Shown here one piece after another: positions 10,546-38,144 of a DNA stretch of 64,000 nucleotides (the stretch's first letter is position 1; the number at the start of each line of letters is the position of its first letter). The notes below the pieces were generated by a model, which worked only from the letters and a program-made list of their open reading frames with translations, was not told the DNA's origin and did not search any database. Location of the stretch: the NCBI RefSeq assembly GCF_053078305.1, contig NZ_CP166879.1. One strand, given 5' to 3'. The position numbers and the translations under genes were made by a program.

Positions 10546-10887
10546 TCATCTGACTACCTGCTCTATCGTGCAACTGAAATCACTGTACCGGGCGTTATCC
10601 GTAATACTCCACTCCCGGCACACCACCCTGACCGTCCGGTTATGTTTCGGGGGCTTCCACAAAAAAGCCCGGTAACCACCATGCCATGACAGAAACGCGG
10701 ACAGTGCCTCCCGCTCAGCATCCGTTGTCACCCGAAAAACCACCTGAAAGGTCTTCAGTTGCGCATTCAGTCCTGCCGGACGACGTTGCTGATAACCGTC
10801 GCCAAACTTCACCGTCACCACCGACGGTTTCTCCGTCACCTGCATCCCTTCCCGGGGACACCAGTGAAGGGTCTTAATCTCATCCAC
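10546..10887 (-). CDS. M: Minor tail protein M
   Basis: 113 aa; ...FGDGYQQRRPAGLNAQLKT...; immediately downstream of tape measure. Confidence 0.85.
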   Translation of the reverse strand: MDEIKTLHWCPREGMQVTEKPSVVTVKFGDGYQQRRPAGLNAQLKTFQVVFRVTTDAEREALSAFLSWHGGYRAFLWKPPKHNRTVRVVCREWSITDNARYSDFSCTIEQVVR

Positions 10888-31149: not shown

Positions 31150-31960
31150 TGCGGGCTTTTTTTATCCATAAGAAAGCCCCTCCGGAGAGGGGCTGGAGTA
31201 GCGCTATGTACCGTTCATTGCATGATGCCGGGTGCCTCCCGGTGAGTTCAGCCCGGTGCCACCGAACCCGCGTCATTCTCGCTAACGATCATCAGAGACC
31301 ATACCGTACACCAGCCGCCCCTCCGCACAGGGGGATTCATCATGCAGAAATTTTTTAACAAATTCTCAGTCGGGAAGACAACCTTCAACTGACTGAATTG
31401 TGAGCAACATAGCATTTAACGGGGAACCTGTTTTCTGCAGTAAAAAGGCCCACCGGAGCGGACGGGCCTGGAAGGATAGCGGTCATGTGATGCCGGTTTC
31501 CCGGTAACTCAGCACCGGTATCTGAGTCAACGTTTTCTCTACTGGGTCATTTCCGATACGCCCTGCCTGCTGACAGGCTTTCATCACATCTGAAAATATA
31601 GCACCCTGACTGATACTGTAGTACCCAAGGTTCCAGAAACTGTGATGTATCCGGCACAGAAAAGCCCCTCCGGAGAGGGGCTGACGCTGCGTATCTGTAT
31701 CATCATGCGCATGGTGCCGGGTGCCTCCCGGTGAGTTCAGTATCAGCACCTGAACCCGCACAGAAAGGATAAGGGATGTAACCAAACACCTGTCGCTGAT
31801 ATGCCCCTCCGCTCAGGGGGATTCACCATGCCAGTTTCTTTTAACAAACTCCCCGCAAATCAGACAACTGTCAACCGTCTGAATTGTGAGACATTTAAAA
31901 TTTTCGGGGCAACAGGAAGACAATCATCACGACACCGGCAACCAGCGACCGGCACCAGAT
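31150..31960. repeat. Two diverged copies (~490-bp spacing) of a structured non-coding element
   Basis: Shared segments AAGCCCCTCCGGAGAGGGGCT, TGCCGGGTGCCTCCCGGTGAGTTCAG, CCCCTCCGCxCAGGGGGATTCA, CTGAATTGTGAG at ~31174/31664, 31223/31713, 31317/31804, 31394/31879. Confidence 0.6.
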
Positions 31961-32956
31961 TTAACGTATGTGCACACAACCTGAACCGGCATCAAAAAAC
32001 AAACCGTGCACTGACAGAAAACGGGAAACCTCCGTCCGCTGATCATCACTCATTAAGGACCACACAAAGGCGTTATGCTCATCTTCAAGTTTCCGTCTTC
32101 TTGTTTGCCTTACAAGCAACTCAGCCGTCACCTGTACAATGTCAATGACCTCCTTCTCTTCAGCAATGTACGGCCTGTTCCAGTTGTCTGTGTTAATCTT
32201 CTCCGTCACCGGCGCTGACTTTTTGCAAGTTTCCCCATTAAACCCGACGCCATAAACAACAACATCATCGCTTTGCTTTTCGTTATCAATAATGACGAAT
32301 AATACAGAAACCGATGTATCAGCGAACCCGCCTGAAATCTGAACCAACTCAACAACGCGGTTGCCAAAATACTGACGCATTGCCAGCTCACCACGCCTGT
32401 AACCAACCCCGGGAAAGCACAAAAAAAATGAAAATCTTGCCTTCATGCTCGCCAGAACATAAAACGCGTCATCCAGAACACCGGAGGTCTTTTTATAAGG
32501 CATCATCGCTGAAATCTTCTCCCTGATATCCGCGCTCTGTGCTTTGTACTGTAGCGAAAAAGGCGGATTCATGATGACACAATCGAACGTGTCCGTGTCA
32601 CTGACATCATCGATGGCGTTGAAGAAATTTTCATTGACCGTCTTCACTGTGGCATCCGGGAAATTATCCGGGATATGCACCAACGGAGAGGCCTGTATAT
32701 CCACAGCATACAGACTTCCCACCGTGAGAAACTGCTCCAGTTGCCCGGAGCCACACGCACCATCAAAAATACTCAGGGGCAGATCACCACAATATTCCCG
32801 CACTTTTTCAGCGACAAACCGACGCAAAGGAACGGACGTGATGTACTCTGCGTATTTTCTGGCGACATCGCGATTATTGGACTCCTGAAAAACCATTTGT
32901 GAAAGGCTCTGTGGTTGATATGCGCCGGGCGTGGCGCGGAGGCAAAAAAGGCCCAC
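31961..32956 (-). CDS. DNA N6-adenine methyltransferase, gamma-like motif order (orphan)
   Basis: FDGACGSGQL (motif I) followed by VIMNPPF (motif IV); start may be internal at ~32896. Confidence 0.7.
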   Translation of the reverse strand: MGLFCLRATPGAYQPQSLSQMVFQESNNRDVARKYAEYITSVPLRRFVAEKVREYCGDLPLSIFDGACGSGQLEQFLTVGSLYAVDIQASPLVHIPDNFPDATVKTVNENFFNAIDDVSDTDTFDCVIMNPPFSLQYKAQSADIREKISAMMPYKKTSGVLDDAFYVLASMKARFSFFLCFPGVGYRRGELAMRQYFGNRVVELVQISGGFADTSVSVLFVIIDNEKQSDDVVVYGVGFNGETCKKSAPVTEKINTDNWNRPYIAEEKEVIDIVQVTAELLVRQTRRRKLEDEHNAFVWSLMSDDQRTEVSRFLSVHGLFFDAGSGCVHIR

Positions 32957-32981
32957 AAAAGCGAGCCAGGAAAAATAAGTG

Positions 32982-33058
32982 TGGTGCGTTGTACTGGATT
33001 CGAACCAGTGACCGATTGCTTAGAAGGCAATTGCTCTGTCCGGCTGAGCTAACAACGC
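32982..33058 (-). tRNA. argO: tRNA-Arg (anticodon TCT), argO-like
   Basis: Cloverleaf read by eye; anticodon loop CTTCTAA; GGTTCGAATCC T-arm; CCA end. Confidence 0.8.
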
Positions 33059-33071
33059 AGTGTACAGATAA

Positions 33072-33148
33072 TGGACCGCCATCGAGGACTCGAACCCCGC
33101 GCAACCAGCTTCGAAGGCTGGCGCTCTATCCCGATGAGCTAATGGCGG
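33072..33148 (-). tRNA. argN: tRNA-Arg (anticodon TCG), argN-like
   Basis: Anticodon loop CTTCGAA; GGTTCGAGTCC T-arm. Confidence 0.75.
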
Positions 33149-33155
33149 TATGTGA

Positions 33156-33231
33156 TGGTGGCCCTTGCTGGATTTGAACCAGCGACCTGGCGATTATGAG
33201 TCGCTCGCTCTCACCACTGAGCTAAAGGGCC
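33156..33231 (-). tRNA. ileZ: tRNA with CAT anticodon, ileX-like (tRNA-Ile2), ileZ-like
   Basis: GGCCCTTTAGCTCAGTGG...GACTCATAATCGC...GGTTCAAATCC...CCA; close to E. coli ileX. Confidence 0.75.
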
Positions 33232-33271: not shown

Positions 33272-34330
33272 TCATCCGTTCTGACTGGCTAAATCCTGAA
33301 CTTCCCTGACCGTCTGCTCAAAACGTTCAGTCTCCAGCTCAACGCCAGTTGCACGACGCCCCAGCGCCATCGCTGCTTTGACTGTCGAACCCGACCCCAT
33401 GAAAAAATCTGCAACCAGGTCACCCGGACGACTGCTCGCGCTGATTATCTGCTGCAGCATTTCTGCCGGTTTTTCGCACGGATGTTTCCCGGGATAGTAC
33501 TGCACCGGTTTATGCGTCCACACATCGGTGTACGGCACCTGCGCCGTCACGCCAAAATACCGCCGCAGATGCTTATATTCACTCTGCAGTTCCGTATAGT
33601 GTCGGTTCAGTTCACTGTATGTGCTGACCAGTTGGTGATGTGGCTTTTCCAGTTCTCCGCGCTGATGCTTCTCTTCTGCCACCCGGGCAAACAGCGCCTG
33701 TAATTTCAGATAATCGCTTTCGTCCGGTAGCTGCCACTGACTGGCACTGAACCAGTGCGACACCATGTTTTTCTTTCCTGTGGCATCAGCAATCTGTTTT
33801 GCCGTTATCCCCAGGGCAGCACGTGCATCACGAAAGTAAGCAATCAGCGGGGCCATCACATGCTGTTTCAGTGCCCTGCCCTTCGCCTCATACCCGGCAT
33901 CTTTCGGACGATACGGCCCCTGATAATGTTCCGCGAACAGAATGCGCTCTGTGGCGGGGAAATACGCCCTCAGGCTTTCCTTGTTGCACCCGTTCCAGCG
34001 TCCGGACGGCTTCGCCCAGATAATATGGTTCAGCACACTGAAGCGTTCACGCATCATGATTTCAATGTCAGATGCCAGGCGATGGCCACAGAACAGGTAA
34101 AGACTTCCGGCAGGTTTCAGCACCCGCCAGAACTGCGCCAGACACTGGTCCAGCCACTTCAGGTAATCATCGTCGCCCTTCCACTGGTTATCCCAGCCCT
34201 CAGGCTTCACTTTAAAGTACGGCGGGTCCGTGACTATCAGGTCAACAGAATTTTCGGGTAACGACCGGATAAATTCCAGGCAGTCGGCGTTGATTAACTC
34301 ACAACTGGATATTTTTACAGTATTAAGCAT
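33272..34330 (-). CDS. DNA methyltransferase, beta-class (N6-adenine or N4-cytosine), orphan
   Basis: 352 aa; DPPY (motif IV) near N-terminus, FFMGSGST (motif I) near C-terminus. Confidence 0.85.
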   Translation of the reverse strand: MLNTVKISSCELINADCLEFIRSLPENSVDLIVTDPPYFKVKPEGWDNQWKGDDDYLKWLDQCLAQFWRVLKPAGSLYLFCGHRLASDIEIMMRERFSVLNHIIWAKPSGRWNGCNKESLRAYFPATERILFAEHYQGPYRPKDAGYEAKGRALKQHVMAPLIAYFRDARAALGITAKQIADATGKKNMVSHWFSASQWQLPDESDYLKLQALFARVAEEKHQRGELEKPHHQLVSTYSELNRHYTELQSEYKHLRRYFGVTAQVPYTDVWTHKPVQYYPGKHPCEKPAEMLQQIISASSRPGDLVADFFMGSGSTVKAAMALGRRATGVELETERFEQTVREVQDLASQNG

Positions 34331-34480
34331 GGATCATTAAGCCTGTCTCTGATAGGCTCATTCTGCTTTTGCGCAAAGCAGTGGGCCTGAGGTTTGCTTG
34401 TGATCCGGACGCATGAGCAGATGGCTGGTGAGTGCCCCTAACACCCACCAGCCGCCCATTTACCACAAATAAAAAAGCCT

Positions 34481-34678
34481 TCAGGACTGAAGGCGTCTGT
34501 AACAACCGAACTGATAGTCTGCCAGACCCGCCATAACAAGCTGGGTCAGTATTAACTGGCAGCGTTCACGTGAAAGATAAGTATTCTGCGCAATCTCCCC
34601 GACTGTCGCCGGTTCGGTGGCACTTAATTCATTAAACACCACTCTGGCGGTTTCTGTCATATCCTGCTGTTTCAGCAT
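34481..34678 (-). CDS. Small hypothetical protein (possible DNA-binding)
   Basis: Internal start MLKQQDMTETARVVFNELSATEPATVGEIAQNTYLSRERCQLILTQL... Confidence 0.3.
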   Translation of the reverse strand: MLKQQDMTETARVVFNELSATEPATVGEIAQNTYLSRERCQLILTQLVMAGLADYQFGCYRRLQS

Positions 34679-34801
34679 GTCTTTTTCCCTTTTCCGGTTA
34701 ACGTGACACACCAATAACTCTTGTCAAAAAAGCCAGCAAGCTGAAAGACCGGTATTCACCACCACCAGCGCGTTTACTGTACTGACGAGATTTTCGGACA
34801 T

Positions 34802-34826
34802 AAAAAAAACCACCTGGCGGTGGTTT
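34802..34826 (-). terminator. tR-prime-like intrinsic terminator downstream of Q
   Basis: Minus strand CCACC-GCCA-GGTGG followed by T8. Confidence 0.6.
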
Positions 34827-34837
34827 TTTCTTACTTT

Positions 34838-34885
34838 GCCATCGCGTACAAAATCGGCAAAATATCAGATTTATACGAAACATAC
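34838..34885 (-). promoter_or_regulatory. Candidate late promoter pR-prime
   Basis: Minus strand TTGCAA, 17 nt spacer, TATGTT between Q stop and the terminator. Confidence 0.35.
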
Positions 34886-34890
34886 GCGAT

Positions 34891-35580
34891 TTAATTGACT
34901 TTTGCAATATCTCGTCGTGAAAAGGTCGCTTTTTGTTGCGCTCTTATTTTCACGGAGCAAATCAAGGATTCTCTATCGAGGCGCTTAAAAATATCGCACA
35001 TCTCACGCCAGTAGTTCGCATAATTATGGCTCCAGTTATCAGGCTTAACTCCACACAGTCTGGCAAGCTCCTGTCTCTGGTAGACCTCACACCCGGTAAC
35101 CCATCCTCTGACATCCTGTGCCGCCAGCCAGATCAACTTCTTCACACGCTCCAGCGTTTTCACTGCAATTTTTCTGGAGCCGGACTGAGTTTTAAATTCA
35201 CTCCACACCCACTGTGTTATGGTGACCTGATCTTCCCAGCAAACATTTCCACTGTAGCACCACAGTAACCACGCCTTCTGATGTTCTTCCAGTTCCAGAA
35301 CGGCACGCCGCCACGATGATGTTGCAAACTCAACCGGACTGACCAGAGCAATTGACGTCCCTTTCGCCAGTGATTGTTTGCCCGGGATCGGTGGATTATC
35401 CCGCGTGATCATTTTTCCGGTTACCTCATCGCGGTAACGAATTTTTTTACGTCTGTAACGCCCTGTATCGAACAGGGCATTTTCCTGCCAGGCTTCCAGC
35501 TGGCCTTTTGTCGACCCACTGAGATCCGCAGTGGCAATCATGAGTTGCTCACGAACAAACTGTAAATACTGGCTATTCAT
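34891..35580 (-). CDS. Late-gene antiterminator Q-like protein
   Basis: 229 aa at the Q position (downstream of rusA, upstream of promoter/terminator pair); Cys-containing; family not verified. Confidence 0.5.
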   Translation of the reverse strand: MNSQYLQFVREQLMIATADLSGSTKGQLEAWQENALFDTGRYRRKKIRYRDEVTGKMITRDNPPIPGKQSLAKGTSIALVSPVEFATSSWRRAVLELEEHQKAWLLWCYSGNVCWEDQVTITQWVWSEFKTQSGSRKIAVKTLERVKKLIWLAAQDVRGWVTGCEVYQRQELARLCGVKPDNWSHNYANYWREMCDIFKRLDRESLICSVKIRAQQKATFSRRDIAKVN

Positions 35581-37772: not shown

Positions 37773-38144
37773 ATGCGAATTTTCAAAAACGCCTGGTTTG
37801 AACGTTTCGCCCGAAAACATCGGATTTCCGATAAATCGCTGCGCGAAATCGTGGAGCAGGCCGATAAGGGGATCATATCCGCAAATTTGGGTAGTGGTGT
37901 CATTAAACAAAGATTAGCCCGAAGTGGTGGCGGAAAATCAGGCGGTTACCGGACAATAATTTTTTACCGCGTTGCAGAAAAAGCCTTTTTCATCTACGCA
38001 TACGCAAAGAATGAACGAGAGAATATCACCGCTATAGAGGAAAATGCTTTTCGAAAAGCCGCTCCCCATGTCCTCAATCTTACTGATGAACAGCTGGCAC
38101 AATTGATTCTACAAGGCCAGTTCACGGAGGTACCCAATGAGTAA
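37773..38144 (+). CDS. Type II toxin, Gp49/RelE-like (DUF891-like)
   Basis: 123 aa; ...GGYRTIIFYRVAEKAFFIYAYAKNERENITAIEE...; 8-nt overlap with downstream HTH gene. Confidence 0.6.
   Translation: MRIFKNAWFERFARKHRISDKSLREIVEQADKGIISANLGSGVIKQRLARSGGGKSGGYRTIIFYRVAEKAFFIYAYAKNERENITAIEENAFRKAAPHVLNLTDEQLAQLILQGQFTEVPNE

Follow-up and report, generated by a model that had tools for sequence, protein, structure and literature searches.

Phage 82-type late switch, structured leader and candidate LexA operator at an M.EcoGII-type methyltransferase gene in a lambdoid prophage of Escherichia coli

Gene order of the locus and an M.EcoGII orthologue

We analysed a 64,000-nucleotide (nt) stretch of contig NZ_CP166879.1 (NCBI RefSeq assembly GCF_053078305.1), hereafter the window, with respect to a DNA methyltransferase gene and the late-regulatory junction of the prophage that carries it. 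The prophage is a lambdoid, Stx-phage-like, stx-negative element of E. coli, and its late genes lie on the minus strand, which is the strand of the features below unless stated otherwise. Read 5′ to 3′ on that strand, the order is a DUF968 gene, rusA, the antiterminator gene Q, a short non-coding stretch, an open reading frame (ORF) of 65 codons (ORF65), a 150-nt spacer, the methyltransferase gene, three tRNA genes, a second methyltransferase gene, STnc100-like RNAs, a SASA esterase gene and the lysis genes. An original prediction, made by a model from the sequence alone, had listed a Q-like gene, a promoter, a terminator, an ORF of 65 amino acids (aa), a 352-aa methyltransferase, a tRNA trio and a second methyltransferase. 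Every one of these items was found, all on the minus strand. The prediction was also right that no partner endonuclease is present, the neighbours of the methyltransferase gene being the small ORF and the tRNAs. The items themselves are textbook matter or have been published, and the core biology is already known.

The methyltransferase gene (33272-34330) encodes an orphan beta-class N6-adenine DNA methyltransferase of 352 aa that matched PF01555 over residues 29-340 (E=7e-44). DPPY (residues 35-38) precedes FMGSG (residues 310-314), which is the beta-class order as described in PMC5778455, and this bore out the earlier description of a DPPY...FxGxG orphan enzyme. The protein shared 333 of 348 residues with M.EcoGII as printed in a supplement to PMC11551740, a text that was machine-read and contains evident reading errors. 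A 349-aa protein of E. coli O104:H4 FWSEC0009 equals the supplement sequence save for those errors, and the window enzyme was 96% identical to it. The gene order in FWSEC0009 (Q, small ORF, methyltransferase, tRNA Ile-Arg-Arg, esterase, holin) is the same as that in the window. Judged by sequence, the methyltransferase is an orthologue of M.EcoGII. The exact sequence was present on at least 1000 contigs.

In comparison with M.EcoGII and M.EcoGI of O104:H4 C227-11, the window enzyme shows 96% identity, the same motif order and the same length class. Its gene likewise occupies a lambdoid prophage site between Q and tRNA Ile-Arg-Arg, with the same small ORF family and the same leader upstream. 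It differs from M.EcoGII by 13-15 substitutions, mostly in residues 191-273, and by a C-terminal tail of ASQNG instead of IV; M.EcoGI and M.EcoGII share 333 of 349 residues (PMC5778455). The upstream Q is of the 82 type in the window; in the O104:H4 prophage it is of another kind, and two genes are inserted there.

M.EcoGII methylates adenine whatever the sequence context, and its expression slows growth; the native strain does not express it (Murray et al. 2018, PMC5778455). Phage 1720a-02 was named in that study as the carrier of a very similar enzyme. A single-molecule real-time sequencing study of O111 Shiga toxin-producing E. coli found homologues of M.EcoGI/GII and no additional motif (PMC6602927). 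In the literature, the enzyme is proposed to serve anti-restriction by methylating progeny DNA heavily. The locus does not look like a restriction-modification system run by a controller protein: ORF65 has only a weak TrmB winged-helix match and no endonuclease gene lies nearby.

The region was 99.9% identical to that of the window in E. coli strains FHI_NMBU_11 and JNEC-KY174. Of 5426 complete E. coli genomes, 3405 contained parts of the segment; coverage of at least 80%, which means the segment with this Q type, was confined to 241. In Stx2a phages with other Q types, homology to the window spanned 32944 up to the T tract of the terminator tR′ described below. Because the homology is bounded at these two points, the cargo module is a cassette with terminator borders. 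The module of phage 1720a-02 was 96.5% identical to that of the window at the DNA level.

Late switch upstream of the cassette

Q (34891-35580) was identified as a phage 82-type late antiterminator of 229 aa (PF06323, E=7.8e-84; phrog_304), and the annotation of NZ_CP045712 also names it Q. With the upstream GTG (35586) as start, the protein would have 231 aa. It was 68% identical to phage 82 Q (X92588) over its full length. A PDB sequence search with Q gave no match. The late promoter pR′ (34879-34907) was read from the sequence as a -35 hexamer TTGCAA (34907-34902), a 17-bp spacer and a -10 hexamer TATGTT (34884-34879). The -35 hexamer falls in the 3′ end of Q, just beyond the piece of DNA that the original prediction covered. 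The transcription start (+1) was placed at A 34872, at the start of an A run, a position deduced from the register of the pause element. With just 8 of 12 consensus matches, pR′ escaped the generic promoter scan. Both hexamers were kept in phages 434, PPompW, 606R7 and PhiR47_2 in an alignment of 82-type phages.

The initial transcribed region (34848-34872) contains a predicted sigma70-dependent pause element, with an AAA start, TG at +6/+7, TATTTT at +9 to +14, GCC at +15 to +17 and T at +25. For 82 pR′, published work describes a pause element that resembles an extended -10, together with GCC at +15-17 and a pause at +25 that ends in U (PMC5001585). The window matched these published features in the same register, the comparison being with the textual description (PMC5001585) and with related phages and not with a direct alignment of the original 82 pR′ sequence. 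The pause-element block was near-identical in PPompW and 606R7, and was conserved also in 434 and PhiR47_2. Earlier work, cited in PMC5001585, reportedly deals with slippage at the 82 late promoter, and the AAA start would fit it.

The intrinsic terminator tR′ (34802-34829) consists of A6, CCACC (34823-34819), the loop GCCA, GGTGG (34814-34810) and T8 (34809-34802). In other 82-type phages the terminator hairpin differs and stands at the same position. The region held 8 terminator-like sites, compared with 2.7 expected. The promoter and terminator that had been said to define a short leader are thus real, the former being of the 82 type and the latter being the predicted CCACC-GCCA-GGTGG plus T8. 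An intrinsic terminator lies downstream of pR′, as the 82-type module requires, and its override by Q is predicted from homology. The likeness to the phage 82 late region accordingly runs from Q itself through the AAA start, the extended -10-like pause element, GCC at +15-17 and T at +25 to the downstream terminator. The spacer between -35 and -10, which is the reported place of the Q-binding element, differs between the window and related phages, as does the terminator hairpin.

The predicted pR′-tR′ leader RNA (34802-34872) is ~71-72 nt long and folds into two hairpins (-26.3 kcal/mol; z=-6.1 versus shuffles). An Rfam scan of this RNA with permissive thresholds gave no family at threshold; the top match, isrK, scored 19 bits, where the gathering score is 50. 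A 25-codon ORF starting from the tR′ T tract was rejected as a gene; it is not conserved in 1720a-02. The late promoter of Stx phages gives rise to StxS, a constitutive short transcript that ends at tR′ in lysogens (Sy et al. 2020, PMC7547250), and StxS, which binds Hfq and regulates rpoS and stx1, is a precedent for such by-products gaining function. The 71-nt transcript of the window might likewise act in trans as a regulatory small RNA in lysogens: pR′ is constitutive by homology, and the RNA starts at a late promoter, ends at tR′, is short and stably folded and carries a terminator with a U8 tail. However, StxS belongs with the 144-aa Q type of Stx1/Stx2a phages and is processed to 74 nt out of a 258-nt leader (PMC7547250), whereas the window leader is ~71 nt as a whole and goes with a 229-aa, 82-type Q. 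Moreover, the conserved part of the window leader is the pause element needed for Q loading, which requires no added explanation for its conservation, and the RNA has no Rfam match. We regard a StxS-like role as improbable.

Leader, LexA box and ORF65 of the methyltransferase gene

The methyltransferase gene is preceded by a structured 5′ leader (34331-34459) with three elements: the hairpin P1 (34459-34413), a palindrome (34381-34363) and a long-range helix joining 34406-34397 with 34341-34331 beside the AUG. The single-sequence fold of the leader had z=-4.9 and a paired AUG. GATC occupies -6 to -3 before the AUG, and no Shine-Dalgarno sequence was found before the start. A contig search with the leader 20-mer ATGGGCGGCTGGTGGGTGTT retrieved 31 species genomes, in 26 of which the start of an M.EcoGII-family gene lay 128-133 nt downstream. 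Providencia and Morganella are among these 26, with a protein identity of only 56-62%. Since the 20-mer fixes one arm of P1, a second, unbiased set was gathered with a Providencia methyltransferase protein as query. The arms of P1 co-varied in this second set (GGCUGGUGGGUG/CACYYACCAGCC, GACUGUAAAAGUG/CACUCUUACAGUC, GACAGUGAGGAUG/CAUCCCCACUGUC and GACCGAUGAGUG/CACACAUCGGUC).

RNAalifold returned the same two main elements from both alignments, namely the long hairpin P1 and the long-range helix, in which (A/G)G(A/G)UC pairs with GAUC(U/C) ending three bases before the AUG. The helices between these two elements differed between the alignments. Positions -7 to -3 are paired in the consensus long-range helix, and the AUG itself is paired only in the window's own fold. 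Paired cells amounted to 97.3% in the first alignment and 95.5% in the second, pairs with compensatory changes to 5 and 7, and cells with such changes to 13 and 32, respectively, for a structure that was derived from the same sequences used for its test. The compensatory cell counts were reached by 0 of 500 shuffles, and slid controls were at most 41% paired. The frequent G-U pairs in the helices indicate that the leader works as sense RNA. The leader is conserved and structured across Enterobacterales, with compensatory changes in prophages of Enterobacteriaceae and Morganellaceae, and its conservation suggests a function. The leader was shortened in the ten loci aligned from a distant methyltransferase branch (IMG/VR), which kept a P1-like hairpin only.

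The centre of the leader palindrome was self-complementary in every variant (GCGC, GTGCAC, ACGCGT and GTCGAC), and the spacing of its arms varied from 15 to 17 nt; the palindrome may act as DNA or as RNA. It was rejected as a repeated operator, the sole other GCTTT-N-AAAGC site in the window sitting in an unrelated ORF. A perfect palindrome that resembles it, GCTTTTCGAAAAGC at 38046-38059, falls within an unrelated ORF of 123 aa (37773-38144); chance probably accounts for the match. A 60-codon ORF across the leader was likewise discarded, as it is broken in other genera and the leader alignment contains indels of 1-3 nt. Chi sites (GCTGGTGG) are present at 34445-34452 and 34762-34769, one of them within the leader hairpin. 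Chi was considered as the conserved feature of the 20-mer and rejected: because the P1 arms change together in the unbiased set, whose loci carry compensating helices without Chi, the Chi site of the E. coli leader is incidental. Rfam with permissive thresholds gave no family for the methyltransferase leader; the sub-threshold matches in the leader scans (isrK, 19 bits; Phe_leader, 29 bits; STnc370, 30 bits) were terminator-driven. No description of the leader was found in the literature searched.

A LexA (SOS) box, TACTGTAAAAATATCCAGTT, was located by pattern and matrix score in methyltransferase codons 3-9 (34303-34322, strand not assigned). The pattern CTGT-W8-MCAG had one match in 64 kb, with 0.00 expected. 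Scored with a matrix built on 18 published SOS boxes (PMC3009722, Table 4), the box reached 23.9 bits, the best value in the window (mean -28, standard deviation 9.4) and within the leave-one-out range of the 18 true boxes (6.6-27.6 bits). The runner-up, TACTGTTTACCTGTACAGTC at 14500-14519, scored 16.6 bits and lies inside a 137-aa lipoprotein-like ORF (14186-14599), just after a 1080-aa ORF at 10880-14122.

All 69 E. coli loci retain the box, with scores of 21.6 bits or more, and so do 57 of 61 Providencia-type loci at 18 bits or more. Each of the 17 distant homologues has a degenerate version that scores below 14 bits, and those examined carry the short leader. The box and the 3′ half of the leader, which includes the palindrome, occurred together in 126 of 130 loci and were both absent from the 17 distant homologues; they appear to have been gained or lost together. 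The residues encoded by the box vary (KISS, KINS, NLNS, ILNS), yet its spacer always consists of A/T-only codons, including ATA and TTA, a sign of constraint on the nucleotides themselves. In members that have the box, ACT is the only Thr codon, and AGT encodes Ser in all but two loci. On the strength of this conservation, we consider the box a candidate operator. No description of this box was found in the literature searched.

LexA-controlled prophage genes include the tum antirepressor of coliphage 186 and the Gifsy antirepressors. As in those cases, a canonical SOS box would make expression of the prophage gene respond to DNA damage; unlike them, the window has its box within the coding region of a gene in the late operon, without an identifiable promoter. 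The methyltransferase could be a direct SOS gene, with a LexA-repressed weak or activator-dependent promoter in the 3′ half of the leader that is switched on via LexA cleavage, independently of or before Q read-through. The strength and conservation of the box favour this, as do its joint presence and joint absence with the leader 3′ half, and a weak candidate promoter, TTGCGC-16-TATCAG, ends 19 nt before the ATG. However, no promoter with 9 or more of 12 consensus matches was found, the candidate -10 hexamer ends without the usual T, and the box would sit at about +20 to +39 from the putative start. The G-U-tolerant covariation, in addition, points to a leader that works as sense RNA transcribed from farther upstream. 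We consider direct SOS control unlikely.

ORF65 (34481-34678) encodes a small winged-helix protein of 65 aa (phrog_331, function unknown). Its match to TrmB was weak (E=0.0018). The AlphaFold model (predicted local distance difference test score 91) has three helices and a beta-hairpin, and a fold search against PDB gave generic winged-helix matches only, to MarR/IclR regulators, SelB and N-terminal domains of O-methyltransferases, with E of 1e-3 or worse. ORF65 lay ~150 nt upstream of the methyltransferase gene in 76 of 76 E. coli IMG/VR loci with enough upstream DNA, and the pairing recurred in Salmonella, Klebsiella and Buttiauxella, behind three different Q families. ORF65 is better conserved than the methyltransferase (83-90% versus 71-79%), and its third helix is invariant. 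Eight of the 26 species loci keep the leader and the methyltransferase gene without ORF65, which makes ORF65 an accessory element.

The com-mom operon of phage Mu produces a toxic DNA-modifying enzyme at a late stage; its gene directly follows a small ORF, RNA structure hides the translation start, and several negative controls are layered on one another. Com is a zinc finger, and the negative regulator of mom is OxyR. The window resembles it on paper in a late, harmful modification enzyme, an upstream small ORF, a predicted masked start and several negative controls. It differs in having no sequence or fold homology, in the chemistry of the enzyme and in the predicted negative regulator, here LexA and not OxyR; ORF65 is a winged helix with two cysteines, which does not fit a zinc-finger activator. 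ORF65 might be a dedicated regulator that times or licenses methyltransferase synthesis by binding the leader RNA (Com-like) or the palindromic DNA (controller-like). Its fixed spacing in the 76 loci and its linkage across genera are in keeping with such a role, as are its conservation, the invariant helix and a fold that DNA-binding proteins and the RNA-binding SelB share. The 8 loci without ORF65 argue against it, as do the weak and generic fold matches, the lack of homology to Com or Xre-type controller proteins and the variable arm spacing of the palindrome. We find such a role doubtful; a Com-like function in particular would be an analogy, not a result.

Proposed control of the methyltransferase, and genes downstream

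A second terminator-like hairpin, GCCTTCAGTCCTGAAGGC followed by T6 (34471-34494), was found by the terminator scan and overlaps the stop codon of ORF65. It is kept via compensatory changes in other genera, where its T tract is weaker. The promoter scan, with a threshold of 9 of 12 consensus matches, gave no site between the two terminator-like hairpins. No sigma70 promoter at this threshold was found for ORF65, the methyltransferase gene, the tRNAs or the second methyltransferase gene.

These results bear on the claim that the prophage would impose two methylation specificities in lysogens. Were both methyltransferases expressed in the lysogen, the host chromosome would be stamped with two motifs, and the pair would be cargo with an epigenetic or anti-restriction role. 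In favour of this, each is an orphan whose catalytic motifs are intact, and the second is uncharacterised and could have a promoter that the scan missed. However, both genes lie downstream of terminator-like hairpins in a late operon and have no consensus promoter, and the first is an orthologue of M.EcoGII, which is non-specific, toxic and silent in lysogens. The view that the first gene imposes a specificity on lysogens is therefore not supported, since M.EcoGII acts in any context and is natively silent, and O111 homologues gave no motif. We consider expression of both enzymes in the lysogen very improbable, and the imprinting of a motif by the first unlikely. The idea of methylation cargo thus survives in part: anti-restriction is the likely purpose, and the two specificities in lysogens are not supported. 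The methyltransferase most likely acts on progeny phage DNA late in lytic growth, as an anti-restriction enzyme.

We propose the following mechanism. By homology with phage 82, pR′ would fire constitutively, and RNA polymerase would pause at ~+25 on the -10-like element. Without Q, transcription would halt at tR′ and leave the ~71-nt leader. Once Q is made after induction, the modified polymerase would pass tR′ and the second hairpin, and this read-through would transcribe ORF65, the methyltransferase gene, the three tRNAs and the genes beyond. The enzyme, presumed to methylate adenine in any context and to be harmful, would be kept off in the lysogen. Its late synthesis would leave progeny phage DNA heavily modified with N6-methyladenine and able to escape many restriction systems. 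Further silencing may act on the gene itself, as conservation suggests: a start without Shine-Dalgarno sequence, a folded leader that pairs bases beside the AUG, and a LexA operator in codons 3-9 that would tie expression to the SOS signal, which also induces the prophage. We assign a probability of about 0.78 to this explanation as a whole, an 82-type late switch controlling an M.EcoGII-type methylase with added silencing layers.

Several points weigh against this explanation. The assignment of pR′ depends on homology, the scan having missed the promoter, and a good T tract follows the second hairpin in the E. coli lineage only. The non-specificity of the enzyme is extrapolated from M.EcoGII across 13-15 substitutions. 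The compensatory changes in the leader are drawn from a restricted set of lineages. On neither strand was a convincing target promoter for LexA found; a LexA site within an ORF could be a roadblock to leaky read-through, could control an SOS-inducible weak or antisense promoter, or could do nothing. For this element, silencing, expression and the timing of methylation are predictions.

More widely, M.EcoGII-family genes may carry an undescribed conserved control cassette, comprising a ~130-nt leader (P1, perfect palindrome, long-range helix, no Shine-Dalgarno sequence) and a LexA operator in codons 3-9, usually with ORF65, that would serve as a fail-safe needing both Q read-through and SOS. 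We advance this tentatively, at somewhat less than even odds. If it holds, the fail-safe would explain why M.EcoGII is silent in its native host. M.EcoGII has wide use in chromatin footprinting and RNA labelling; the authors who discovered it noted its silence in the native strain and gave no mechanism (PMC5778455). The control region, leader plus LexA box, appears to be undescribed, and a folded leader and an in-gene SOS operator are concrete, testable answers to that silence. On this evidence, lambdoid phages may make the synthesis of a hazardous methylase with broad anti-restriction action depend on both the late switch and DNA damage.

Downstream of the methyltransferase gene, the tRNA trio (32982-33231; ARAGORN, Rfam and RefSeq annotation) comprises a tRNA with the CAT anticodon, annotated as tRNA-Ile, followed by Arg-TCG and Arg-TCT, and corresponds to ileZ-argN-argO of Stx phages. 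The last tRNA is followed by a terminator-like feature (32944-32967) made up of a hairpin (32967-32950) and T6. The second orphan methyltransferase gene (31961-32956) has the gamma-class order, with motif I before NPPF (PF02384, E=1.7e-4; phrog_6380). Because the hairpin overlaps its annotated GTG start, a form shorter than the one of 331 aa is likelier, and the true start is probably ATG 32896, giving 311 aa; this form is common in the cluster of the enzyme. The gene sits at the stx position of Stx phages, illustrating reuse of a cargo slot, and no consensus promoter at the scan threshold precedes it. The arrangement is rare (11 of 5426 complete genomes; 2 of 80 IMG/VR loci), and the nearest phage relatives of the enzyme, in Streptococcus, Fusobacterium and Mannheimia phages, are ~40% identical.

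The prophage of FHI_NMBU_11 carries an additional 311-aa DNA methyltransferase in its lysis cassette (NZ_CP045712.1 416252-417187). A counterpart of this third methyltransferase was ruled out for the window, which has no 311-aa ORF at the corresponding place. Between the second methyltransferase gene and the esterase gene lie copies of STnc100 on the minus strand, two strong (31164-31374 and 31654-31860) and one weaker (31440-31613), with Rfam scores of 168, 135 and 28.5 bits. Chi sites numbered 12 in the window, compared with 2.8 expected from shuffles; of those between 26 and 51 kb, 8 of 10 were on the minus strand, the strand of the late genes examined.

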